A stretch of DNA of 64,000 bases from an uncultured Enterobacteriaceae bacterium (GTDB lineage Bacteria > Myxococcota_A > UBA9042). Position 1 is the stretch's first letter; each line of letters starts with the position of its first letter. The notes beneath the pieces are model-generated. The model was not told where the DNA came from, searched no databases, and saw only the letters and a program-made list of their open reading frames with translations. Location: assembly GCA_964560875.1 (NCBI GenBank), contig CAZLMW010000005.1, positions 3,882 to 67,881 on the forward strand, in the 5' to 3' direction. Shown piece after piece: positions 11,727 through 61,947 of the stretch. Both the position numbers and the translations under genes were made by a program.

Positions 11727-11858
11727 CGGTAGGACTGGTTCTACGGGCCGATCTCGCCTCGAAGCTGTTAATACCAAGCCCCCCTGCCAAAACCGCTCCA
11801 GCGGCTTCTACGTGGCTTAGAGAGGCATATGGCTCCAAAAAACGCCCCCGCGGACGGT
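11727..11858 (+). repeat. About 130-nt structured intergenic repeat element, copy 1
   Basis: About 85% identical to the reverse complement of 36912-37052. Contains hairpin-forming TCTACGGG arms and a GGCATATGGC box. Confidence 0.6.
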
Positions 11859-12001
11859 GTGCGGAGGCGAATTCGGCCGGCTAGCCCCGGCTAGCCCGAG
11901 CGATGCGTGCGCTGAGGCCGTGACCGCGAAACAGTCGTCCTGGAGCCTACCTACGCGCTACAATGACGGTCATGGTCATACCTGCTGCTGGCTCGCCCCG
12001 G

Positions 12002-36161: not shown

Positions 36162-36686
36162 TCATATGCCGCCCGGCCGCGGCCATTTCAGCCAGAGTTC
36201 GATGATGGGATGCGGTGCAGCGTTGCCTGGTGAGGGCCCGAATCCGACGCCGGCAAATGCGGTCCGCTTGACCTTCTTGCCGCCGAGCATCATCGCGACG
36301 CGAGCGTCTCCGTACACCTTGACGAGCAGAGGTCCTCCGCCGTCGTCGGATTGCAGCAAGAACGGCATGAACCCGGCGGCGGGTATCGCAACCTTGTCGG
36401 CGTGTCGGTCGGCCAGCAGGTAGAGGCGGTCCCGTTTTTCGTCGACGTGGATGTACAAGCTGCCCCACGGTTCATCCGACGGTTGCGCCTGCCATTCGAC
36501 ACACTCGGTGACCGTGCCGAGGCCGGTGAAGGCGCCGTCGATGGTCAGCGGAATCGGGCATTGAATTGTCTCGTCATCGCCGGGCGCGGCGACACGACCG
36601 CATCCAGCCGCCACCATGAGCACGAGCGACAGGCCAACGCGCAACAAGTGAGCGAGGCGTCGGTCGGCGATCGGCAGCGGCAACAT
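36162..36686 (-). CDS. Hypothetical lipoprotein
   Basis: Signal peptide LSLVLMVAAGCG. 175 aa, immediately upstream of the IPT gene. Confidence 0.55.
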   Translation of the reverse strand: MLPLPIADRRLAHLLRVGLSLVLMVAAGCGRVAAPGDDETIQCPIPLTIDGAFTGLGTVTECVEWQAQPSDEPWGSLYIHVDEKRDRLYLLADRHADKVAIPAAGFMPFLLQSDDGGGPLLVKVYGDARVAMMLGGKKVKRTAFAGVGFGPSPGNAAPHPIIELWLKWPRPGGI

Positions 36687-36911
36687 CGTCGCAGTGTACC
36701 CCACAATCACCGGCTGCCCGGCACGGTCAATGCGCGCCGGACCGGCATCTGGTTGCGGGTTGTGGTGCCGTCGTTGCGCTGTTCAGCGGACGGGGGCCTC
36801 TTTGGCCCGGAAGACGCCAGGCAAACCTGTGTCCCGTCAACTGGTCAGCGATTTCGGACTTGGGTTCACGCTACCGCAAGCCGTTGCACAGCCGACCGTG
36901 CCAAAACCGTG

Positions 36912-37052
36912 CACCCGGACCGTCCGCGGGGGCATTTTTCAAGGCCATATGCCCCTGCGTGGCTCGTAGAGGCCACTGGAGCGGTTTTGATAGGGGGGTG
37001 CGGCATCAATACCTTCGAGCGGCGATCGGCCCGTAGAGACGGTTCTACGGGC
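36912..37052 (-). repeat. About 130-nt structured intergenic repeat element, copy 2 (inverted relative to copy 1)
   Basis: The reverse complement aligns to 11727-11858 at roughly 85% identity. Contains the CCCGTAGA-GACGGT-TCTACGGG hairpin. Confidence 0.6.
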
Positions 37053-37175
37053 AAACGGCCAACCGTCGCGCCTCGGCGACTTCTCGCTCTGGGAGCTCCT
37101 GCGCCGGGCGCGGCGACGCGACCGCATCCAGCCGCCACCATTGCTTCGGCGGCGGTTTTTCGAGACGTTGGTGCC

Positions 37176-37769
37176 GTGGACGCCGAGCGACTCTACGTGC
37201 AGCCCGATGTGTACGGGCATGCCTACGACCTCTTCCTGCATCCGCTCGACGGTGGGCAAGCGGCGTTGGCGGCGATCCTCGGCGCGCTGGGGACCCATCC
37301 GGCGTTTGGCGACTGGTACGTCGGCTCCGACCACGGCTGGCGGCTGACCACACCCAAGCTCGCAGTCGAAGCCGAGGTGCTCCAGCTGGTCGCGGCATCC
37401 AAGACCATCGGATCGGTGGCGAACCTCGGCGGCAACCGACGCCTGGCTTTCTTCGCCATCGTCTTCTTGCAGCCGCCGGTGTCGATCAACCTGTGGACGA
37501 AGATGTCCGAGGTGGTGGGCGCCTTTGGTTTGCGCGACGACGACGACGACGACGACGCTCCGACGACACCATGGCGCCGCGTGATGGACAGCTTCTACCG
37601 CGACCTCGCCGAGCGTGCGCACGCCGCCTCGCCGCTGCACGGCGCGTTGATCGGGCCCGAGGTCGAAAACGAGCTGGATTGGACGGCGCCGCTGCCCGAA
37701 GACCGCTGGGAAGGCACGCTCATCGCCATGGCCGATGGGTTGCACTGGCATCCCGCGACGCGCTGGTAG
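37176..37769 (+). CDS. Hypothetical protein with a poly-Asp tract (GTG start inferred)
   Basis: Protein-like C-terminal 200 aa of a long ORF. (GAC)7 gives DDDDDDD. No ATG, so GTG at 37176 is chosen. Confidence 0.35.
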   Translation: MDAERLYVQPDVYGHAYDLFLHPLDGGQAALAAILGALGTHPAFGDWYVGSDHGWRLTTPKLAVEAEVLQLVAASKTIGSVANLGGNRRLAFFAIVFLQPPVSINLWTKMSEVVGAFGLRDDDDDDDAPTTPWRRVMDSFYRDLAERAHAASPLHGALIGPEVENELDWTAPLPEDRWEGTLIAMADGLHWHPATRW

Positions 37770-38252
37770 CAAGGTGAGGGGACCGTATTGCCGCGAATCG
37801 GGTCTGCCGCGGCCGAGGGCGGAGAGCCTTGGGCTCGCTTTGGGCGATGGCGCCCGAGCACGCCGCTAACGCGTCGTGCCGGTTGGTTCGGATACGGCGT
37901 CGGCGGCCGCGGCCGATGGCGGACTCGGAAATGGCGGACGTCGGATTCTCGGAGCTCGGACGGCGGGAAAGCGCCGCAGATTCCGGCCGCCGCGTCTGCT
38001 TTGCAGCCCCGCCTTTACTGCTTGTCGGCGCGGACGAGATTGGCTGGATTCAACGGCTCGCCCATCCGGGCGGCCGCGCAGCGGTATTGGGTGCAGCCTT
38101 TCTGCGCGAAACAGATTCGCCGTCGTTTCGCCTCTTGGCGCCGCACGAACGGCAACAGTCCGCGCTGGGAAACCAGCGATTCTCGTCGCAAAGAAGCGCA
38201 TCGATAGTGGGTTGTAGAGCGGTGCTCGCGAGATTGAGCGATCGCTGCGGTC

Positions 38253-48417: not shown

Positions 48418-49149
48418 GTGAAATTCGAATCCGGTGGGGGCATTTGCAAGGCCCGCGTCACCGCGGCCGTGGTCGTCCGTTTCTACATTCCCGAGGGGCT
48501 CTCGATGCTTGACGGCGTCGACGCCTTCGCGATTGCGAAGCTGACGTCGTGCGGCAAATTGCAGTGGTACCGGCGCTACGACGGCGGCAAGGACAACGGC
48601 GCGCGGGAACTTGGCCGCGGGCTCCACGTTGTGCCGGACGGCTATGTCATGTCCGGCGTCCGACACTGGCCCGGGGACGGCTACGCGTTCTGGCTCGCGA
48701 AGGCCAACAAGAGCGGTCAACTCGTATGGGATCGGTACGTGGGCGGTACTCACGACGGGGTCGTGAGCGGCAAACCCAGCGACAACTACGCCCACTTGAA
48801 CCTTGGTGCAGCCGGGCCTGGCGGGTTCTTCTTGGCCGGCTGGACACAAGCTCCAAACCCGAAGTCACAGAAGCTCCAAGCGACCCCGTGGCTTCTTCGC
48901 CTGACCCCGACCGGCCACGACAGCTGTGGCGGCGTCGACCTGTGCGCGGGGAAGGTCGTGTCCGAGATGTGCGACGACAACAAGCCGTGCACGATCGACA
49001 GTTGCCTTCCGGACAAAGGCTGTGTGCACACGTCGCGCGCCAACTTCTCCTGGTGCGGCAATCACTACCTGGCCGACGCAGACAAGGTCGTGCCCTGGAG
49101 CTGCAGCGCTGGGTCGTGCGTTCCCGATTGGGTAGGACCGCTGCCCTGA
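48418..49149 (+). CDS. Hypothetical protein carrying one CDDNKPCTIDSC..GC repeat of the same type as the giant downstream lipoprotein
   Basis: GTG start, no signal peptide. C-terminal CDDNKPCTIDSCLPDKGCVHT module. Confidence 0.4.
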   Translation: MKFESGGGICKARVTAAVVVRFYIPEGLSMLDGVDAFAIAKLTSCGKLQWYRRYDGGKDNGARELGRGLHVVPDGYVMSGVRHWPGDGYAFWLAKANKSGQLVWDRYVGGTHDGVVSGKPSDNYAHLNLGAAGPGGFFLAGWTQAPNPKSQKLQATPWLLRLTPTGHDSCGGVDLCAGKVVSEMCDDNKPCTIDSCLPDKGCVHTSRANFSWCGNHYLADADKVVPWSCSAGSCVPDWVGPLP

Positions 49150-49281
49150 TGATCCCCGGGACAGCGGTGAGGATCGTATGAGTCGGGCTGTGACGCGCCC
49201 CTGCCAGCGATCCGCGGCACATGTGGTCGCGAGGTTGCAAATAACCTACATTGTTGCTGCCCCACGCCGCCGGAGTCCTTC

Positions 49282-52200
49282 ATGACCGCTCGTTTCACGC
49301 CCGCGGCCGCGCGCCGTTACCCCATCGCGTGCCTTTGCATCGCTTCCCTCGCGCTGACCGCCTGCGGCAGCGATGAACCGGTCGACGGCCCCCTGGCTTC
49401 GACAAACGTCGACTCGGGCCCGGCCGATACCGGACAGACCGACACCGGCGTCCAGGACTCGGGGACCACCGACACCGGGGTCAACGACACCACGCCCACG
49501 GACACGGGGACCACCGACACCGGGGTCAAGGACACCAACCCGAACGTCGACGTCCAGCCGGTGGACACCAAGCCGCCGGTCGACGCCAAGCCCGACACCA
49601 AGCCGCCGACCGACGCCGCGCCCGAGTGCACCAACGCCACCGACTGCGTCCCGTCCACCGATCCGTGCAAGGTCGCCGCGTGCACGTCCGGCCAGTGCGT
49701 GCTCGCCGATGGGCCCGACGGCAAGGAATGCACCGACGACGACGCCTGCACCGGCCCGGACCTGTGCAAGACCGGCGTGTGTCTGCCCGGCAAAGCGACC
49801 CAGTGCGACGACGCGAACGCTTGCACGCTCGACAACTGCGACAAGAACAAGGGCTGCAGCCACACCAACGTCTCGCTGCCCTGCGATGACGGCAGCAAGT
49901 GCACTTTGGCCGACCAGTGCAAGGACGGCGCGTGTCTCGCCGGGGCCACGGCCGAATGCGACGACGCAAACCCATGCACCGACAACACCTGCGAGCCCGC
50001 GATCGGCTGCGTGACGACCGCTACCACCAAGCCATGCGACGACGCAAACGCGTGCACGCTCGGCGACAAGTGCAGCGCGAAGGTCTGCCTGCCCGGCACG
50101 GTCACCAACTGCAACGACGACAACCCATGCACGACGGACGCGTGCGACAGCAAGACCGGCTGCACCCAGGCGTTCAACAAGGTGCCTTGCTCGGACAACG
50201 ACGCCTGCACCATCAAGGACGCCTGCAAGGACGGCAGCTGCAAGCCGGGCACCAAGCTCGACTGCGACGACTCCAACCCCTGCACCGCGGACGCCTGCGA
50301 CGCGCAATCGGGCTGCACGACCAAACCGAACACCGCGACCTGCGATGACAACAACCTGTGCACCGAAGACGACAGCTGCAAAGGCGGAAAATGCCTGCCC
50401 GGCAAGTCCAAGTCGTGCAGCGACGGCAACCCGTGCACCACCGATAGCTGCGACCCGGCGACCGGCTGCGCATTCAAGCTCAACAGCGGGCAGTGCGACG
50501 ACGGCAACGCGTGCACCGACTTCGACATCTGCAAGAGCGGCAAGTGCCGCGGCGTCGCCAAGGACACCAAGACCGACTGCAACGACGCCAACCCATGCAC
50601 GACCGACGCGTGCGATCCCGGCTCGGCCCAGGTGAAGGGCAAGGGCTGCGTACACACCAACAACACCGCCAAGTGCGACGATGGCAACGCCTGCAGCGCC
50701 GGAGACGCCTGCAAAGACGGCAAGTGCGCGGCCGGCAAAAACGTCTGCGCCTGCACCGAAGACAAGCACTGCGCCCCGTCCAACCCCAAGAACCCGTGCC
50801 TCGGCACGCTGTTCTGCGACAAGTCCGCGGCGCCGTTCAAGTGCAAGCTCAACCCGGCTTCAGTGGTCAAGTGCAGCGGCGCCGGTGACACGTTGTGCGC
50901 CAAGAACCAGTGCGATCCCAAGGACCTCAAGTGCAAGGTGACGCCGATCGCCGAGGGCCAGTCCTGCAACGCCGACAACTCGGTCTGCACCGTTGGCGAC
51001 GCCTGCAAGAACGGCAAATGCGCGCCCGGCAAAGCGCTCGCCTGCAACGACGCCAACCCGTGCACCAACGACGCCTGCGACCCCAAAGCCGGCTGCGTGA
51101 ACACCGCGAATTCGGCGCCCTGCAACGCGGACGGCAACCCCTGCACCGTCGGCGATGTGTGCGTGGCCAAGGCGTGCACGGCGGGCAAGAAGAAGGACTG
51201 CGACGACGGCGACAAGTGCAGCGACGACTCCTGCGACAAGAAGTCCGGCAAGTGCGTCAACGACAAGATCGCCGGCTGCGGCGGTCACTGCCAGGAAGAC
51301 AAGCACTGCGACGACGGCACGACCTGCACGACCGAGTCCTGCGCCAAGGCCAAGGGGGCCGCGTGGGGCAAGTGCGCGTACAAGAACCAGCCCGGCAAGT
51401 GCACCGACTTCAACGCCTGCACCGCGGCCGACCACTGCGTCGCGGGCAAATGCGTCGGCACGGCCAAGTCCTGCAGCGACGGCAACCCCTGCACCAACGA
51501 CGGCTGCGACCCGACCAGCGGCTGCACGTTCCCGCACAACACCGCGCCTTGCGACGACTTCGACAAGTGCACCCAGGGCGACCAGTGCAAGGCAGGCAAG
51601 TGCGCGGCAGGCACCCCCAAGAAGTGCGACGACGCCGACAAATGCACCAAGAACGCCTGCAACCCTGCGGACGGGGCCTGCAGCTTCAAGGGCATCGCGG
51701 GCTGCGGCGGCTACTGCGATACCGCGGCGGACTGCGACGACAAGAACCCGTGCACGACCGCGCAATGCAACAAGGGCAAATGCGTCTCATCGGTCAAGGC
51801 GGGCGGCTGCGAGGACGGCAACAAGTGCACGCTGAGCGACAAGTGTTCGGCCGGCAAGTGTGTCTCGGGCAGCAAGAAGAGCTGCGATGACAAGAACGCG
51901 TGCACCACCGATTCGTGCGACACCAAGACCGGTCAGTGCGCCAACAAGCCGCTCAAGGCCGGCGACAGCTGCAACGACAACAACAAGTGCAGCACCAAGG
52001 ACGTGTGCAAGCTCGTCAGCGGCAAGCTGCAGTGCGGGGGTACGACCAAGAACTGCGACGACGGCAACAAGTGCACCGACGACGCGTGCGACGCGAAAAC
52101 CGGCAACTGCCAGCCCAAGGTCAACACCCTGCCGTGCGAAGACGGCAACAAGTGCACCGCGGGCGACCGCTGCAAGGACGGCAAGTGCGTCACCGGCGCC

Positions 52201-55200
52201 AAGGTCTACGTCGACACGTTCGCGGGTTCGGGGCCCATCCATGGCAACAAGGGCGGATTCGTCGACGGGCCTGGCAACAAGGCCAAGTTCAGCTACCCGC
52301 TTGGCGTCGCAGTCAACAGCAAGGGCGTCGTCTACGTCGCCGACGCGTCCAACCACCGGATTCGCCGCATCGCCGCCGACGGCACCGTGAGCACCGCGGC
52401 TGGTTCGGGTAAAGCTGGCCTGCTCGACGCGAAGGGCACCGCCGCCTGGTTCAACGCGCCTTATGGCGTCGCTATCGGGCCGGGCGATGAGGTGTTCGTC
52501 GCCGACCAGGCCAACTACAGCATCCGCAAGATCGCGACCGACGGCACCGTTTCAACCGTCGCGGGATCGGGCCAGGGGGGGCACGTCAACGGCGACGCGG
52601 CCAAGGCGCGGTTCAACCGACCGTTCGGCGTGGCGGTCAGCAAGGCCGGCACCATCTTCGTCGCGGACACCTACAACCACCGCATTCGTCGCATCGCTTT
52701 CGGGCAGGTAACGACACTCGCGGGCAGCGGCGGGGCAGGGTTCACCAACGGCACGCCGACCAAGGCGCGCTTCTACTACCCGATCGGGGTCGCTATCGAC
52801 GCTGGTGGCAACGTGCTCGTCGCCGACCAGAGCAACCATCGCATCCGCCGCGTCGACGCCAAGGGCAACGTCACCACGTTCGCCGGCACGGGCGGCTACG
52901 GCTCGCTCAACGGCAGCGCGACCAAGGCCACGTTCCGCAACCCGTGGGGCATCGCGGTCGACAACGCGGGCGTGGTTTGGATCGGCGATCGCTACAGCCA
53001 TCGCATCCGGCGCATCGCGGGCGGTGTGGTCACCACTTTTGCTGCCAGCGGCGCCGCGGGCTTCGTCGATGGGGCCGCGAACACCGCGCGCCTGTACTAC
53101 CCGTCCGGGGTTGCCGTCGACGCCGGCGGAACCCTCTACATCGCCGACCAATACACCCACCGTGTGCGACGTGTGCGCGATTCGACCGCGCCATGCCTCA
53201 TCGGCGGCAGCTGCTACGCCAACGGCGCGGCGAACCCGGCCAACGGCTGCGAACGCTGCGTCGCCAAGACGTCATCGACCAAGTGGACGGCGGGCGGCGA
53301 CGGCAACGCGTGCTCGGACGGCGATGTCTGCACCGCGGCCGACAAGTGCAGCGGCGGCTCCTGCAAGGGCAGCGCCAAGGTCTGCAACGACAGCGACAAG
53401 TGCACCCTCGACAGCTGCGACAAGAGCACCGGTCAGTGCGTGTTCGCGCCGATTAACAAGTGCGGCGGCAACTGCAAGGGCGCCAGCGACTGTGCCGACA
53501 ACAACCCGTGCACCATCGACAAGTGCACCAACGGCAAGTGCGCGAACAGCAACGCGGACGGACTTGTCTGCAACGACGGCAACAGCTGCACCCTCGGCGA
53601 CGCCTGCAAGGGCGGCAAGTGCCAGCCCGGCGCGTCCAACAGCGTCTCGACCCATGCCGGCAGCGGCGTCGCGGCGTTGACCGACGGCAAGGGCATAAAA
53701 GCCAGCTTCAACTACCCGCGCGGCGTCGATGTTGGCGTGAAGGGCGAGCTGTGGGTCGCTGAAGGCCACTCCCACCGCATCCGCAAGGTCGCTGCGGACG
53801 GCACGGTCACGACGGTGGCCGGGTCCGGTGTCGCTGGATTCGCGGACGGCAAGCTCGCCGGCGCGATGTTCCAGTGGCCGCACGACGTCTCGTTCGCCAA
53901 GGCCGGCGTGATCCACGTCGCCGACGGTAGCAATCACCGCATTCGCACGGTCGACACGGCCAAGGGCGTGGTGACGACACTGGCCGGAATTGGCGCCGGT
54001 TTCACGGATGGTCCGGCCGCCAAGGCGCGGTTCAACAACCCGTACAGCCTCGCGACCGCACCCAACGGCACGGTTTTCGTCGCGGACTACAGCAACCACC
54101 GCATCCGCGCGATCTCGCCAGCCGGGGGTGTCAGCACGCTTGCCGGCGGCGCCAAGGGCTTCGTCAACGGCACCGGCAGCAAAGCGCGCTTCAACGGCCC
54201 GATCGGCATCGCGCTCGACCAGCAGGGGCGCGTCGTCGTGTCCGATTACAGCAACCACTCGATCCGCCGCGTCACCATGCAAGGCGTCGTGACCACGATC
54301 GGCGGCACTGGGGTCGCCGGGTATCGCGACGGTTCGGCCGGTGTCTCGCGCTTCCGCTACCCCTGGGGCATCACCACGGATTCAGCCGGGCGCGTTTTCG
54401 TGGCCGACCGACACAACCATCGCATTCGGGCGATCCATCCCAACGGCACGGTGACCCGCATCGCTGGCACAACCGCCGGGTTCCTCGATGGCGACGGCCT
54501 GACCAAGGCGCGACTGCACTACCCGATGGGGCTCGCCGCGGACGCCAACGGCACGCTGTGGGTGGGCGACTACAGCACGCGCAGGATCCGCAAGGTCGTG
54601 CCCTCGGCGAACGCCTGCTCGATCGGTGGCGCCTGCTACGCAAACGGCATTGGTTCCCCGACCAACGGCTGCCAGGCATGCGCCGGACAAACCAACAGCA
54701 AGGCGTGGACCGCGCGGGCCGACGGCGCCGTTTGCTCCGATGGTGACGTGTGCAGCGGCAAGGACGCCTGCGCCAGCGGCAAGTGCGCGAGCAAGAAGAC
54801 CAACTGCGACGACGGCAACAAGTGCACCAAGGACTTCTGCGACCACCTCGGCGTGTGCCGCAACGAGCCGATCGTCGGCTGCGACGGCTTCTGCTACCAG
54901 CACGCGGATTGCGACGACAAGAACGTGTGTACCGACGACGTCTGCAACGCCAACAAGTGCGCCAACCCGACCAACGTCAAACCGTGCGAGGACGGGGTCT
55001 CCTGCACGCTCGGCGACACGTGCAGCGGCGGTAAGTGCAAGCCAGGAACCGCCGTCTGGACGTCGACCATCGCGGGCAATGGAAAGGCCGGCTTCAAGGA
55101 CGGGAAGGTGACCGACGCGCAGTTCTACTATCCGCTCGGGATCGCGGTCGACAGCGGCAAGGGCCATGTCTACGTCGCCGACAACAGCAACCACCGCCTG

Positions 55201-57639
55201 CGTCGCATCGCGGCCGACGGCACCGCGACAACCATCGCCGGTAGCGGCAAGGCGGGCTTTGGGGACGGCGCGGCAGCCATCGCTCAGCTGCGCAACCCAT
55301 CGGATGTCGAGATCGGCCCCGGTGGCGGGCTCTACTTCGCTGACCGCGGCAACCACCGCATCCGTGTCCTCGCGGCCGGCAAGGTCACCACGGTCGCGGG
55401 TTCAACGGCCGGATACGCCAACGGCAAGGCCGCCGCGGCGCGCTTCAACAACCCGTATGGCATCGCGGTGAGCAGCGGTGGCGTCGTCTACGTGGCCGAC
55501 TACAGCAACCACCGCGTGCGCCGCATCCTGCCCGACGGTTCTGTCAGCCTCGTGGCCGGTTCAGGCGCCGGTTACGTCAACGGCAAGGGCGCTGCCGCCC
55601 GATTGCACGGGCCGATCGATGTCGCGCTCGACCGCGCCGGCAACCTCTTCGTCGTGGAGCACACGGGACATCGCGTGCGGCGGATCACGCCCGATGGTGT
55701 CACCTCGCTCGTCGCAGGCTCCGTCAGCAACCAGGCCGGGTATGTGCACGGCAAGGGCGCAACTGCGCGTTTCCGCTACCCGTGGGGCATCGCCGTGGCA
55801 CCCAACGGTCGCATCTATGTCGCCGACGGACATAACCACCGCATTCGCGAGATCGTCGGTGACGTCGCCGGGCATTTCGCGGGCAGCGGCACGGCCGGGT
55901 TCGCCAACGGAACCGCCGGCAAAGCCGCGTTCTACTACCCGCGTGGAATCGGCGTCGGCGCCGACGGCGCGGTCTACATCGGGGACCAATACAACCACCG
56001 CATCCGCAAGATCGTGGATGCGCGGGCACCTTGCGCGATCGGGTCGGCCTGCTACGCGGCTGGTACGCCAGCGACCGGCAAACCATGCTCGGTTTGCGAC
56101 GCGGCGAAGAACGCCAAGGCTTGGACCACATTGGCCAACAGCGCGCCCTGCGAGGACGGCAACTACTGCACCGAAAAGGACGCGTGTGCATCCGGCTCCT
56201 GCGCCGGTAGCAAGGTGTCCTGTGACGACTCCGACAAGTGCACCACCGACTCGTGCAACGCCAAGTCCGGCGCCTGCGTGCACACCAAGATCGTGGGCTG
56301 CAACGGTTTCTGCACCGAGGACAAGCACTGCGACGACGGCAACCCGTGCACGCAGGGCGACCTCTGCATCAACAACACCTGCGGCAAGGGCACGCGGACG
56401 GTCTCCTCGACGTTGGCCGGCACCACGATCGGCTTCCAAGACGGCGACGCGAAGACGTCCAAGCTCAACAGGCCCTACGACGTCGCGGTCGACAGCAAGG
56501 GCGCGCTCTATGTCGCGGACTACAACAACAACCGCATCCGCAAGGTTGCCGGCGGCAAGGTGAGCACGCTCGCGGGCAGCGGCCAGGCCGGGCTCAAGAG
56601 CGGCAAGGGCACCGCTGCATGGTTCAACCGACCATCCGGTGTCACGACCGACGCAGCAGGCAACGTCTACGTCGCCGATCGCTACAGCTACACGATCCGC
56701 AAGGTCACCGCGGACGGCACCGTCTCGACCCTCGCTGGCAACGGTGCGGCCGGGGCGTCGAACGGCAAGGGCTCAGCAGCGCGCTTCAACCAGCCGATCG
56801 GCATCGCATCGACCGCTGGTGGCGTCCTGTATGTGGCCGACTACAACAACCAGCGCATCCGCCGAGTCACCGCCGATGGCACTGTGTCCACGCTCGCCGG
56901 TAGCTCGTACGGGTACGCCGACGGCAAGGGTTCGGCCGCCAAGTTCCGCTACCCGATCGGCATCGCCGTCGACCGGGCCGGCAACGCATTCGTCACCGAC
57001 TTCAACAACCACCGCATCCGCAAGGTCACCGCGGACGGAGTCGTCACCACAGTCGCGGGCTCGGGCAGCGCGGGCTTGCTCAACGGCGACGCCAAGACGG
57101 CCAAGTTCTACAACCCCTGGGGTATCGCCGTGGACGGCGCCGGTCGCGTCTACATCGGCTCGTACCGGTACCATCGCTTGCGCGTGCTCGACGCGGGCAC
57201 TGTCTACCAGGTCACCGGTTCATCGGCGGGCTACGTCGACGGCGCAGCGGGCCGCTTCTACCACCCGCTCGGTATCACGACCGACGTCTACGGCAACATC
57301 TTCGTCGCCGACTACTGGAACAACCGTATTCGCCAGGTGAGCCGCACGGCCAACGCTTGCTCCATCTCCGGAGCGTGCTGGACCGACGGCGTGCACAACC
57401 CGGGTTCAGCGTGCCAGGCCTGCGCCGGGAGCAAGAGCGCGAAAGGTTGGTCCGCCATCGCCGACGGGCAGTGGTGCGAAGACGGTGCAATGTGCACGGT
57501 CGGCGACGTCTGCAAGAGCGGCAAGTGCACCGGCGGCGCGAAGGACTGCGACGACAAGAACAAGTGCACGACCGACAGCTGCGACGCCACGACCGGAGCC
57601 TGCACGTACAAAGTCCCCGACCCGAAGTGCAAACCGTAG
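49282..57639 (+). CDS. Giant (2785 aa) lipoprotein: Thr/Asp-rich linker, about 24 alternating 25-aa cysteine-rich repeats, and four NHL-repeat beta-propellers separated by Cys-repeat spacers
   Basis: Lipobox LALTACG. Repeats CDDANPCTxDxCDxxxGC alternating with CxDxxxCTxxDxCKDGxCxPG. NHL blades YPLGVAVNSKGVVYVADASNHRIRRIAADGTVST... Confidence 0.85.
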   Translation: MTARFTPAAARRYPIACLCIASLALTACGSDEPVDGPLASTNVDSGPADTGQTDTGVQDSGTTDTGVNDTTPTDTGTTDTGVKDTNPNVDVQPVDTKPPVDAKPDTKPPTDAAPECTNATDCVPSTDPCKVAACTSGQCVLADGPDGKECTDDDACTGPDLCKTGVCLPGKATQCDDANACTLDNCDKNKGCSHTNVSLPCDDGSKCTLADQCKDGACLAGATAECDDANPCTDNTCEPAIGCVTTATTKPCDDANACTLGDKCSAKVCLPGTVTNCNDDNPCTTDACDSKTGCTQAFNKVPCSDNDACTIKDACKDGSCKPGTKLDCDDSNPCTADACDAQSGCTTKPNTATCDDNNLCTEDDSCKGGKCLPGKSKSCSDGNPCTTDSCDPATGCAFKLNSGQCDDGNACTDFDICKSGKCRGVAKDTKTDCNDANPCTTDACDPGSAQVKGKGCVHTNNTAKCDDGNACSAGDACKDGKCAAGKNVCACTEDKHCAPSNPKNPCLGTLFCDKSAAPFKCKLNPASVVKCSGAGDTLCAKNQCDPKDLKCKVTPIAEGQSCNADNSVCTVGDACKNGKCAPGKALACNDANPCTNDACDPKAGCVNTANSAPCNADGNPCTVGDVCVAKACTAGKKKDCDDGDKCSDDSCDKKSGKCVNDKIAGCGGHCQEDKHCDDGTTCTTESCAKAKGAAWGKCAYKNQPGKCTDFNACTAADHCVAGKCVGTAKSCSDGNPCTNDGCDPTSGCTFPHNTAPCDDFDKCTQGDQCKAGKCAAGTPKKCDDADKCTKNACNPADGACSFKGIAGCGGYCDTAADCDDKNPCTTAQCNKGKCVSSVKAGGCEDGNKCTLSDKCSAGKCVSGSKKSCDDKNACTTDSCDTKTGQCANKPLKAGDSCNDNNKCSTKDVCKLVSGKLQCGGTTKNCDDGNKCTDDACDAKTGNCQPKVNTLPCEDGNKCTAGDRCKDGKCVTGAKVYVDTFAGSGPIHGNKGGFVDGPGNKAKFSYPLGVAVNSKGVVYVADASNHRIRRIAADGTVSTAAGSGKAGLLDAKGTAAWFNAPYGVAIGPGDEVFVADQANYSIRKIATDGTVSTVAGSGQGGHVNGDAAKARFNRPFGVAVSKAGTIFVADTYNHRIRRIAFGQVTTLAGSGGAGFTNGTPTKARFYYPIGVAIDAGGNVLVADQSNHRIRRVDAKGNVTTFAGTGGYGSLNGSATKATFRNPWGIAVDNAGVVWIGDRYSHRIRRIAGGVVTTFAASGAAGFVDGAANTARLYYPSGVAVDAGGTLYIADQYTHRVRRVRDSTAPCLIGGSCYANGAANPANGCERCVAKTSSTKWTAGGDGNACSDGDVCTAADKCSGGSCKGSAKVCNDSDKCTLDSCDKSTGQCVFAPINKCGGNCKGASDCADNNPCTIDKCTNGKCANSNADGLVCNDGNSCTLGDACKGGKCQPGASNSVSTHAGSGVAALTDGKGIKASFNYPRGVDVGVKGELWVAEGHSHRIRKVAADGTVTTVAGSGVAGFADGKLAGAMFQWPHDVSFAKAGVIHVADGSNHRIRTVDTAKGVVTTLAGIGAGFTDGPAAKARFNNPYSLATAPNGTVFVADYSNHRIRAISPAGGVSTLAGGAKGFVNGTGSKARFNGPIGIALDQQGRVVVSDYSNHSIRRVTMQGVVTTIGGTGVAGYRDGSAGVSRFRYPWGITTDSAGRVFVADRHNHRIRAIHPNGTVTRIAGTTAGFLDGDGLTKARLHYPMGLAADANGTLWVGDYSTRRIRKVVPSANACSIGGACYANGIGSPTNGCQACAGQTNSKAWTARADGAVCSDGDVCSGKDACASGKCASKKTNCDDGNKCTKDFCDHLGVCRNEPIVGCDGFCYQHADCDDKNVCTDDVCNANKCANPTNVKPCEDGVSCTLGDTCSGGKCKPGTAVWTSTIAGNGKAGFKDGKVTDAQFYYPLGIAVDSGKGHVYVADNSNHRLRRIAADGTATTIAGSGKAGFGDGAAAIAQLRNPSDVEIGPGGGLYFADRGNHRIRVLAAGKVTTVAGSTAGYANGKAAAARFNNPYGIAVSSGGVVYVADYSNHRVRRILPDGSVSLVAGSGAGYVNGKGAAARLHGPIDVALDRAGNLFVVEHTGHRVRRITPDGVTSLVAGSVSNQAGYVHGKGATARFRYPWGIAVAPNGRIYVADGHNHRIREIVGDVAGHFAGSGTAGFANGTAGKAAFYYPRGIGVGADGAVYIGDQYNHRIRKIVDARAPCAIGSACYAAGTPATGKPCSVCDAAKNAKAWTTLANSAPCEDGNYCTEKDACASGSCAGSKVSCDDSDKCTTDSCNAKSGACVHTKIVGCNGFCTEDKHCDDGNPCTQGDLCINNTCGKGTRTVSSTLAGTTIGFQDGDAKTSKLNRPYDVAVDSKGALYVADYNNNRIRKVAGGKVSTLAGSGQAGLKSGKGTAAWFNRPSGVTTDAAGNVYVADRYSYTIRKVTADGTVSTLAGNGAAGASNGKGSAARFNQPIGIASTAGGVLYVADYNNQRIRRVTADGTVSTLAGSSYGYADGKGSAAKFRYPIGIAVDRAGNAFVTDFNNHRIRKVTADGVVTTVAGSGSAGLLNGDAKTAKFYNPWGIAVDGAGRVYIGSYRYHRLRVLDAGTVYQVTGSSAGYVDGAAGRFYHPLGITTDVYGNIFVADYWNNRIRQVSRTANACSISGACWTDGVHNPGSACQACAGSKSAKGWSAIADGQWCEDGAMCTVGDVCKSGKCTGGAKDCDDKNKCTTDSCDATTGACTYKVPDPKCKP

Positions 57640-59559: not shown

Positions 59560-61947
59560 ATGAAGAACCGCACCATTGTTGGCCTTGCCGCCGCCGCACT
59601 TTCTCTCACCCTCGCCGCACCCGCCGCGGCCGCTGTTCCAGCCACGGTCGCCATGCACGGAACGCTGCATTCGGCCGGTGGTGGACCGGTCGCCGACGGC
59701 ATCTACGGCGTCACCATCGCGCTCTATGCCGGCGAAAACGATAAGGTGGCGGCGTGGAGCAACCTCGTGCTGGTCAAGGTCACTCACGGCCACTTCGCGC
59801 ACCCGCTGGGCAGCAAGAAGGCGCTCGATGCCAAGCTGCTCGGGACGTTCGGTTGGCTCGGCGTGACCGTCGGCCAGGACCCGGAGTTGCCGCGTGTTCG
59901 CCTTCACAGCGCGCTCTTCGCCCGCCACGCCGCGGTCGCCAACGCCGTCGCATGTTCGGGCTGCATCACCGCCACGCACCTCGCCAAGGGCCTGTTGAGC
60001 ACCGGAGTCCCCGACGGGTCGATCACCGCCAAGAAGGTCACGTTCGCCTGGGCCGCCGCAGACAAGGCCGGTGGCAAGGCCCTCGCAGCCAAGATCGCCG
60101 ACAGTGCCAAGAACGCCGACAGTGCCAAGAACGCCGACAATGCCAAGAACGCCGACAATGCCAAGAACGCCGACAATGCCAAGAACGCCGACAGTGCCAA
60201 GAACGCGGCGTCTGCCCTCGTTGCGACCACCGCCAAGCTCGCCAGCGACCTCAAGTGCACCGGCTGTGTCGGCGTGTCTGAGCTCGCCTTCGATGGCGAC
60301 ATCGATCTCGGCAAGAACCGGCTCAAAGCGGCCAAAGTGAGCGCGACCGAGGTCGTCGGAAGCACCGTAACGGCGGGCTCTTTTGTAGGCGACGGCTCCA
60401 AGCTGACCGGAATCGCGCTGCCCAAGGGGTCATGCGCCGCTGGCGAGGCGGTTGTCGGGGTCAGCACGAACGGCAAGCTGCTTTGCAAGAAGGTCGCCTC
60501 TGCCACGCCCGGCGGCTCGCTCGAGAAGGTCAGCGGCGGTCTGCTCACGACAGGGTTTTCGCAGGTTGTCGCCAACAACAAGGCGATCCCGATCCCGGAC
60601 AACAACCCCGGCGGCGCCTACAGCGATGTCGTCGTGCCGGACCTCGGCATCGTCAAGAACCTGACCGTCGCCATCGACGTGACCAACTCGGCGTTTTCGG
60701 GGCTCACCGTGACCCTGATCGCCCCCGACAAGAGCAAGTACGTGCTGTTCTCCAAGAACGGCGCGGTCATCACCAACCTCAAGGCGACCTATCCCGCGCC
60801 GAACAAGCCGGTCAGCGGCGACCTCAACGCGTGGATCGGCAAGAACGCCAAGGGCACATGGCGGCTGCACGTCGTCGATATGTCGTTCAAGGACAACGGC
60901 AAGGACGGCAACATCGTCTCGTTTTCGATGCACATCGCGTTCCAGGCAACCGGCAAGGTCGGCACCACCGGCGTCTTCATGCTGCACAAGTCCGCGACCC
61001 CACCAGCGGCCTGCTCGCTCGCGTCCGAGGGCGGCATCTACTACGACCCCAAGCTCAAGCGCCTGCGCTTCTGTGACGGCAACGCGTGGCAATCGGTCGC
61101 GGGGAGCTGCGGCAACGGCACCAAGGAGCCGGGCGAGATGTGCGACGACGGCAACAACACCAACGGCGACGGATGCACGTCTGTCTGCACGACGATCTGC
61201 GGCGACGGCAAAGTCGGCGGGGCCGAACAATGCGACGACGGCAACAAGGTCGACAACGACGGCTGCAGCAACACCTGCAAGGGCGCACTCGGCCAATCGC
61301 AGAGCTCGGCCGCGAAGAGCTGCAAATACATCAAGCAGCTATCGCCCAACGTCAAGAGCGGCCTGTTCTGGCTCAAGGTCTCGGGCCTCGGCACGTTCCA
61401 GGCCTACTGCGATATGTCGACGGCCGGCGGTGGCTGGGTCCTGACGCACGTCGTCCGCACCTACAGCAGCAACGTCTCGTGGTGGTTCACGCGCACCGGT
61501 GACGGCACAGGTGGCGTGACGAACCTGCCCAAAGCGGTCAAGCAACCGAGCAGCTACCACACCGGTCCGACCCTGAAGACGCGCGCCAGCCTGTGGACTG
61601 GCCTCGGCGGTACGGAGTATCGGGGCACGCGCTACAGCACCGGCGGGTCCCTGCTGATGGACGTGACCAAGAACGACATCAAGTCCTGCCAGGTCGGCCT
61701 GTTCTGCTACGCGGCAGGATGCGGCGGCAGCCCGTGCTTCAGTCAGAAGCGGTCGGGCAGCGTGACCGTGATCGGGGGAACGCTGTACGGCAAGGGCACG
61801 CAGCCCTACTACGACGTCGGCAGCTACAAGTGCAATTGCTCCGAGGCGCTGCAGGTCGGCGGGTCGGGCGCCGGACAGAGCAACGGACACGGCCTCGCAG
61901 GCGACTGGGACACCGGCAACGGCTACACGGCCTTCTGGGTCCGCTAG
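59560..61947 (+). CDS. Secreted protein with a P-domain, Myxococcus cysteine-rich repeats and a C-terminal fibrinogen-related domain (paralog of 9522-11699)
   Basis: Signal peptide. (AKNAD)x7 repeat. P-domain GTWRLHVVDMSFKDNGKDGNIVSFSMHI. CGNGTKEPGEMCDDGNNTNGDGC, CGDGKVGGAEQCDDGNKVDNDGC. FReD SGLFWLKV..YCDMSTAGGGWVL. Confidence 0.75.
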   Translation: MKNRTIVGLAAAALSLTLAAPAAAAVPATVAMHGTLHSAGGGPVADGIYGVTIALYAGENDKVAAWSNLVLVKVTHGHFAHPLGSKKALDAKLLGTFGWLGVTVGQDPELPRVRLHSALFARHAAVANAVACSGCITATHLAKGLLSTGVPDGSITAKKVTFAWAAADKAGGKALAAKIADSAKNADSAKNADNAKNADNAKNADNAKNADSAKNAASALVATTAKLASDLKCTGCVGVSELAFDGDIDLGKNRLKAAKVSATEVVGSTVTAGSFVGDGSKLTGIALPKGSCAAGEAVVGVSTNGKLLCKKVASATPGGSLEKVSGGLLTTGFSQVVANNKAIPIPDNNPGGAYSDVVVPDLGIVKNLTVAIDVTNSAFSGLTVTLIAPDKSKYVLFSKNGAVITNLKATYPAPNKPVSGDLNAWIGKNAKGTWRLHVVDMSFKDNGKDGNIVSFSMHIAFQATGKVGTTGVFMLHKSATPPAACSLASEGGIYYDPKLKRLRFCDGNAWQSVAGSCGNGTKEPGEMCDDGNNTNGDGCTSVCTTICGDGKVGGAEQCDDGNKVDNDGCSNTCKGALGQSQSSAAKSCKYIKQLSPNVKSGLFWLKVSGLGTFQAYCDMSTAGGGWVLTHVVRTYSSNVSWWFTRTGDGTGGVTNLPKAVKQPSSYHTGPTLKTRASLWTGLGGTEYRGTRYSTGGSLLMDVTKNDIKSCQVGLFCYAAGCGGSPCFSQKRSGSVTVIGGTLYGKGTQPYYDVGSYKCNCSEALQVGGSGAGQSNGHGLAGDWDTGNGYTAFWVR

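Follow-up and report, generated by a model that had tools for sequence, protein, structure and literature searches.

How does part of a coding sequence come to stand a second time, in the same orientation, in the non-coding DNA upstream of its own gene? The question is raised by a stretch of 64,000 nucleotides (nt), here called the window, from an uncultured bacterium (GTDB lineage Bacteria, Myxococcota_A, UBA9042; NCBI GenBank assembly GCA_964560875.1, contig CAZLMW010000005.1, positions 3,882 to 67,881 of the forward strand). In this window, part of the signal-peptide code of a lipoprotein-like open reading frame (ORF) recurs in the region between this ORF and a divergently oriented orphan gene for a protein of 197 amino acids (aa), and a member of a dispersed family of repeats of about 130 nt lies between the two copies. 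A preliminary description had taken this arrangement for the footprint of an insertion or recombination event that rebuilt the 5' end of the lipoprotein gene. The explanation favoured here, to which we assign a probability of roughly 0.55, is a one-off ectopic patch duplication of 40 bp of signal-peptide code into the upstream intergenic region.

A 40-nt direct repeat at the start of a lipoprotein-like gene

The features on which the argument turns are the following.

36162–36686, minus strand: lipoprotein-like ORF of 174 aa, corresponding to the N-terminal domain of a family in which an IPT-like region and Cys-rich repeats normally follow
36578–36617, minus strand: copy A of the 40-nt repeat, comprising, in the lipoprotein ORF, codons 24–36 (MVAAGCGRVAAPG) and the first base of codon 37 (mRNA positions +70 to +109) and including the lipobox Cys29
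37102–37141, unstranded: copy B, which matches copy A at 39 of 40 positions and stands as non-coding sequence between the two divergent genes
36618–37101, unstranded: segment of 484 nt between the copies, made up of the first 23 codons of the lipoprotein, the 234 nt upstream of them, the 130-nt element and a unique stretch of 51 nt

When the 64-kb window was compared with itself for dispersed repeats (24 nt or longer, identity of 93% or above), the 40-mer alone was found, excepting 24-mers within Cys-rich repeat genes. The two copies have the same orientation and start 524 nt apart. The plus-strand sequence of copy A is CGCCGGGCGCGGCGACACGACCGCATCCAGCCGCCACCAT, and copy B differs from it only by a G for A at position 17 (36594 versus 37118), a change that is synonymous in the lipoprotein (CGT versus CGC, Arg31). 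The preliminary description had the sequence and the single mismatch right, but gave the length as 39 bp and placed the copies at 36586–36624 and 37100–37138, coordinates that have to be replaced by those listed above. Similarly, the intervening segment does contain the element, as had been stated, but is longer than the reported size of about 475 bp and encodes 23 rather than 20 codons of the gene. In 100 dinucleotide shuffles, no 40-mer match was obtained even when up to 3 mismatches were allowed. The homology is sharply bounded: gapped local alignments of the 120-nt flanks of the two copies gave scores of 9.0 and 8.0, which are at the level of shuffled sequences (means of 9.2 and 8.8). The earlier proposal that the repeat is the footprint of some duplication or recombination event is borne out by this sharply bounded, non-chance 40-mer.

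Both copies were also found in a contig of 102,975 bp from ENA ERZ27251152 and in a contig of 37,473 bp from JGI 3300009481, which belong to different projects and are 99.94–99.97% identical to the window over 6.5 kb. In two further runs, separate short Logan unitigs contain copy A with both flanks (L003, L004) and copy B with both flanks (L006), and these unitigs break only within the 130-nt element, at 36944–36971. Four independent assemblies hold the repeat, and an assembly artefact as its source is ruled out by the ENA and JGI contigs together with the Logan unitigs. The public instances of the locus represent near-identical strains, which differ at 2–4 positions in 6.5 kb and are identical in the 40-mers. 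The search for further copies that had been recommended earlier was run and yielded none beyond A and B in the window, in the other loci retrieved or in viral contigs. The 40-nt repeat is a real feature of the locus, reproducible and secure in statistical terms.

The 5' end of the lipoprotein gene looks native

In order to decide which of the copies is the older one, the protein encoded across copy A has to be considered. When the lipoprotein and the 197-aa protein were used as queries in word-index searches of 5.8 billion clustered proteins, only the queries themselves were returned, and no Pfam, NCBIfam or PDB sequence match was obtained for either. An exhaustive HMMER search detected 32 distant relatives of the lipoprotein, many of which are proteins of 430–680 aa with a lipoprotein-type signal peptide, a domain corresponding to about residues 40–170 of the window protein, a middle region and C-terminal CG.DGCGG.CG.C repeats. 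The translated lipoprotein starts MLPLPIADRRLAHLLRVGLSLVL-MVAAGC-GRVAAPGDDETIQCP..., and its residues 3–166 align at 39% identity with residues 5–172 of a full-length distant homologue (P0007). This alignment spans the lipobox and the 23 residues encoded in the segment between the copies; signal peptides being compositionally simple, its N-terminal part is supportive, not conclusive. As in other family members, the lipobox Cys is located 13 residues ahead of the conserved CP..IDG.FTG motif. Removal of the 484-nt segment would leave a lipoprotein beginning with MVAAGC, lacking the n- and h-regions of a signal peptide, and the reading frame upstream of copy B meets an in-frame stop 18 codons away with no intervening start codon. 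The present 5' end of the gene looks native, and the P0007 alignment, the Cys spacing and the implausible gene that would have existed beforehand speak against the claim that it had been rebuilt. Because the N-terminus aligns with P0007 and such a pre-insertion gene is implausible, copy A and its upstream context would be original and copy B derived.

The ORF itself is a fragment. Two further features bear on this.

36162–36164, minus strand: in-frame TGA between the lipoprotein ORF and the Cys-rich ORF that continues downstream in its reading frame, identical in L001–L004
34980–36149, minus strand: Cys-rich repeat ORF, aligning with P0007 residues 213–679, the C-terminal part of the same ancestral gene

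Since the lipoprotein ORF corresponds to residues 5–172 of P0007 and the downstream ORF to residues 213–679, both derive from one ancestral gene that was split by a nonsense codon. The TGA responsible is found in all four assemblies. It is situated inside an AT-rich 11-mer, CATATGAATTC, with overlapping NdeI and EcoRI sites in a context of 67% GC (36154–36164, minus strand ...GGCATATGAATTCCC...). The split surface-protein gene may be a pseudogene, or it may now encode two separate working proteins. The G+C content at third codon positions (GC3) of the lipoprotein ORF is 0.77, below the 0.86–0.89 of real genes, and together with the nonsense split this suggests a locus under relaxed constraint, where a scar could persist.

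Copy B as a probable patch duplication

In the favoured explanation, copy A is the native signal-peptide sequence, which takes in the lipobox and the first part of the linker, and copy B would be derived from it, a non-coding duplicate of no more than these 40 bp that was placed 484 bp upstream in a single event and without inversion. Templated filler synthesis or the capture of a fragment in the course of break repair might have produced it. The direction of copying, from A to B, is one that we infer, as is the timing of the event. When the region around copy B was searched by tblastn with the lipoprotein family, nothing was detected beyond the 13 residues of copy B, a result that speaks against a decayed paralogue and against a duplication of greater extent. 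With a GC3 of 0.60, an ORF of 91 codons on the minus strand that starts at the ATG of copy B does not look like coding sequence when compared with the real genes. As judged from the limits of the respective homologies, copy B is unrelated to the element of about 130 nt that lies between the 40-mers.

Several points weigh against a patch duplication. Neither a locus without copy B nor an orthologue of the locus in another species was found, and the flanking genes have no close homologues among the 5.8 billion proteins. The mechanism of origin is one that we infer, and no diagnostic microhomology was seen at the junctions of copy B. The orientation of the repeat is the very one that makes divergent transcripts complementary, and the lone mismatch becomes a G·U pair. 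Copy B ends in a hairpin followed by T5, though T5 runs number just 19 in the 128 kb of both strands. Finally, a neutral 40-bp direct repeat should in time vanish by deletion, yet this one has been kept in all sampled populations.

If copy B is a scar, it has no demonstrated function and its certain consequence is structural. Direct repeats of 40 bp that are 524 bp apart form a deletion substrate, and deletion between them would remove the lipoprotein promoter and the first 23 codons. An allele without copy B would read ...GGGAGCTCCTG joined directly to TGCTTCGGCGGCGG, and the deletion product or 'empty site' would read ...TTGTCTCGTCAT, one 40-mer and then TGCTTCGGCGG.

Possible antisense pairing between divergent transcripts

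The orientation of the repeat and the end of copy B lead to the alternative that survives best, for which two features on the other side of the intergenic region are needed.

37130–37160, plus strand: terminator-like hairpin, GCCGCCACC / GGCGGCGG, –15.3 kcal/mol, followed by T5, with the 3' end of copy B as its left arm
37176–37769, plus strand: divergent orphan gene for 197 aa, with a GTG start, called in public assemblies; G+C contents at the three codon positions (GC1/2/3) of 0.70/0.46/0.86

The codon-position composition of this gene is typical of coding sequence in this genome, as shown by the adjoining conserved CCC transporter gene, which serves as the reference coding signature (GC1/2/3 of 0.67/0.51/0.89). 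The intergenic region between the lipoprotein and the 197-aa genes measures 489 nt, 34 nt of which separate copy B from the GTG at 37176. Because the genes are divergent and the repeat is direct, the RNAs of both would be complementary. It is conceivable, but in our judgement unlikely, that a plus-strand RNA across copy B pairs over 40 nt with codons 24–36 of the lipoprotein mRNA. Such an RNA might, as an equally tentative proposal, belong to the 197-aa gene as its leader, or it might be short and terminate at the hairpin and T5 at 37130–37160. The outcome of the pairing, which is to be regarded with the same doubt, would be either decay of the lipoprotein mRNA or opening of the terminator hairpin and readthrough into the 197-aa gene.

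The predicted duplex is contiguous over 40 positions, 39 of them Watson-Crick pairs and one a G·U, without any mismatch, against mRNA positions +70 to +109, and by cofolding about –59 kcal/mol is gained relative to the two RNAs folded separately. The last nine bases of copy B form the left arm of the hairpin (z = –2.6), which would be followed by U5 in the RNA. Only 4 of the T5 runs on the two strands of the window are preceded by a stable hairpin, and this is one of them. These points are countered by several others. A scan of both strands of 36100–37800 for sigma-70-like promoters returned no promoter-like site, and the best candidate, a weak TTGATA-N17-TACCTT arrangement within the 130-nt element, was read by eye. 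As the hairpin ends 16 nt ahead of the GTG, there is no space for the 197-aa gene to have a promoter of its own. The target site is 70 nt into the coding region and away from the ribosome-binding site; what is targeted is no small toxin but a lipoprotein fragment of 174 aa from a gene interrupted by a nonsense codon; and hairpins form easily by chance in sequence that is rich in GCC and GGC. The right arm of the hairpin, UCGGCGGCGG (37146–37155, plus strand), is also complementary to positions +7 to +16 of the lipoprotein mRNA (36671–36680), over 10 nt including one G·U and just past the start codon; this complementarity may be due to chance in such GCC/GGC-rich sequence. Searches against Rfam gave nothing in the whole window at gathering thresholds and nothing in 36690–37180 at E values up to 5.

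The nearest precedent is the agrA/agrB–dinQ locus of E. coli, where divergent antisense RNAs, transcribed opposite dinQ, have their own promoters and rho-independent terminators and a complementarity of 31 nt (30/31 for agrB) (PMC3567139). In both cases a stretch of the target gene is repeated directly in the adjacent region of opposite transcription, over 31 nt (30/31) in agrB and 40 nt (39/40) here, and in the window, too, a terminator-like hairpin and a U-run follow the repeat. In contrast to agrB/dinQ, the locus described here is known from sequence, without a promoter having been found, and the target is a 174-aa lipoprotein ORF instead of a small membrane toxin. The position of the pairing differs as well, as it falls in the coding region (+70 to +109) and the complementary stretch would be at the 3' end of the RNA, by the terminator, and not at its 5' end. 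Extended complementarity in a divergently encoded small RNA pair is also a property of istR-1/tisB.

An elaboration combines both ideas: copy B would have arisen by patch duplication of its target and would since have been domesticated as an mRNA-sensing attenuator, in which pairing silences the lipoprotein mRNA and at the same time melts the terminator, with readthrough into the 197-aa gene. This combination we hold to be improbable.

Possible relics of larger events

Quite improbable, too, is a derivation of the repeat from a larger event, either an old segmental duplication or tandem paralogue of which a 40-bp survivor was perhaps refreshed by gene conversion, or a pair of attL/attR-type cores of a site-specific integration, remaining after loss of its cargo. 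The remodelling of the locus, with its ancestral gene divided by an in-frame stop, and the abundance of paralogous Cys-rich repeat proteins in the genome are in its favour. However, beyond the 40 nt no remnant of similarity is left in either the DNA or the encoded protein, and a segmental or tandem duplication or a relic paralogue at copy B was rejected on the basis of flank alignments at the null mean and of a tblastn match limited to 13 residues. No recombinase is recorded among the called genes around the locus: in the roughly 6 kb towards lower coordinates and 3 kb towards higher ones, no integrase, transposase or reverse-transcriptase Pfam match is on record, and the neighbouring genes encode a CCC transporter, a PIN-domain protein, a DUF2804 protein and proteins without a Pfam match. 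The core of the 40-mer (23 nt) had 0 matches in a viral contig collection, plasmid collections not having been searched, and is absent from all other loci retrieved. Like attL and attR, one repeat is found in the end of a working gene and the other beyond intervening DNA, and the length is typical of a core. Unlike them, the repeats enclose only 484 nt and no integrase gene, the 'restored' part of the gene looks ancestral, and no displaced native 5' end is present by copy B. There is no tRNA or tmRNA gene and hence no obvious att target.

A diversity-generating retroelement was considered as well and rejected: no reverse-transcriptase Pfam match is found at the neighbours, the repeat is in a signal peptide at the 5' end of the gene, and its one mismatch is of the wrong kind. 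This mismatch is A/G on the plus strand (T/C on the minus strand), with the A in the gene copy and not in the intergenic copy.

The dispersed element of about 130 nt and the insertion model

The copies of the element that were recovered are the following.

36921–37050, plus strand: element copy 2, a member of the intergenic repeat family of about 130 nt, with homology to 37060 against the closest copy
11728–11856, minus strand: element copy 1, of the same family, with no 40-mer and no flanking direct repeat
L013 3491–3620, L014 6455–6584, L011 7512–7635 and L012 11129–11255: other element copies

The preliminary description had placed the element of the intervening DNA at 36912–37052, limits that do not coincide with those of the homology. 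The two copies in the window are 77% identical to each other. For scans, the most conserved block of the element (CTGGAGCGGTTTTGNNAGGGGGG) was employed. A scan of JGI metagenomes, which missed the window's own JGI contig, revealed four further distinct copies (L008=L013, L014=L016, L011 and L012) with identities of 74–89%, besides four chance matches (L009, L010, L015 and L017). When species-representative genomes were scanned with the same block, only a chance match in a metagenome-assembled genome of Verrucomicrobiales was obtained. The four metagenome loci come from three samples of one series, and their contigs agree in GC content and in the Cys-rich repeat genes that they carry. This brings the number of distinct copies recovered, all at unrelated loci, to six. 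Their homology is limited to about 130 nt (140 nt against the closest copy), nothing else being common to them, and it contains the invariant blocks GGAGCGGTTTTG..AGGGGGG and GATCGGCC. A weak promoter-like arrangement, TTGAyA-N17-TAsCTT, is seen by eye in the family.

RNAalifold analysis of the six copies in both orientations gave no convincing conserved structure, the covariation terms of +1.1 and +2.9 kcal/mol being penalties, and no Rfam match was obtained for the element. At three of the six loci, as judged at the level of ORFs, the 3' end of the element would overlap the stop codon of a convergent ORF or lie within about 30 nt of it. The element is comparable to the repetitive extragenic palindromic (REP) and enterobacterial repetitive intergenic consensus (ERIC) sequences in being short, non-coding, multi-copy and intergenic, often just past a stop codon, but differs from them in that no conserved palindromic fold or Rfam match was detected and that it is known so far from few related environmental samples. 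At element copy 1, the flank CGCCTCCGC pairs with GCGGGGGCG of the element and is followed by T6 (–17 kcal/mol; 11842–11870, minus strand), forming a terminator-like site into which no gene reads on that strand.

For the origin of the 40-nt repeat it is relevant where the element ends. Its edges are 303 nt from copy A and 41–51 nt from copy B, so that the direct repeats are not adjacent to it. The core of the 40-mer is absent from all five loci of the other copies, and no comparable flanking direct or inverted repeats exist at copy 1, L008/L013, L014/L016, L011 or L012. Because the edges are distant and the other copies have neither the 40-mer nor flanking repeats, the 40-mer is not a target-site duplication of the element; and as the element's homology is confined and the other copies are without the 40-mer, the copies do not have the 484-nt segment in common as a mobile unit. 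The suggestion that the element is or was mobile is sustained in so far as it belongs to a dispersed family, but the duplication of the 40-mer is unrelated to any such mobility. A role of the element as a general antisense module was also considered and discarded, as a 40-nt 'targeting' patch was sought beside the other copies and none was found. The segment contains no coding-like ORF, and no terminal inverted repeats are reported at its ends or at those of the element.

Known bacterial transposases make target duplications of 2–14 bp. Insertion of the 484-nt segment or of the element into the lipoprotein gene, with duplication of a 40-bp target and acquisition of a new promoter and N-terminus, is the least credible of the explanations, for although the repeat-segment-repeat geometry resembles the target-site duplication of an insertion sequence or miniature inverted-repeat transposable element and the bracketed segment does contain a member of a dispersed repeat family, the repeats are far too long, do not abut the element and are absent at its other copies, only 130–140 nt are common to those copies, no terminal inverted repeats were seen, no transposase is on record for the genes around the locus, and the gene before insertion would have had the MVAAGC start described above in place of an N-terminus that aligns with P0007.

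Further observations in the window and related loci

A second repeat was noticed in loci retrieved with the element. It is a large imperfect palindrome with arms of about 46 nt that are 77–85% complementary and 80–100 nt apart (L011 12344–12532; L013 3798–3972, equal to L008 789–963), and its arms are alike in two unrelated loci of the same samples. In the window, at about 31630–32520 (L018 3215–4101), a PIN-domain gene (148 aa) and an overlapping gene for a 147-aa partner adjoin the CCC-type cation-chloride transporter gene; this pair looks like a VapBC-type toxin-antitoxin module. Positions 48900–57600 are occupied by a very large gene region of Cys-rich CDDGN.CT modules and NHL-like repeats of about 160 nt, and a tandem array of 18-nt units (GCCAAGAACGCCGACAAT) is present at 60070–60231.

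Significance

Besides the origin of the repeat, the analysis newly delimits a family of intergenic repeats of about 130 nt and identifies the 'lipoprotein' as the N-terminal fragment of a nonsense-interrupted surface-protein gene, two results that may prove the more useful ones in practice. If the 40-mer did play a part in antisense pairing, the locus would show how a regulator with long complementarity is born by copying a fragment of its target into a neighbouring leader, and it would extend to a very different lineage a layout studied mainly in enterobacterial type I toxin-antitoxin loci. Read as the scar of a patch duplication, it would be of minor importance, as a clean, dated instance of ectopic patch duplication of 40 bp in an uncultured bacterium of high GC content and as a caution against taking every repeat-segment-repeat arrangement for transposition.

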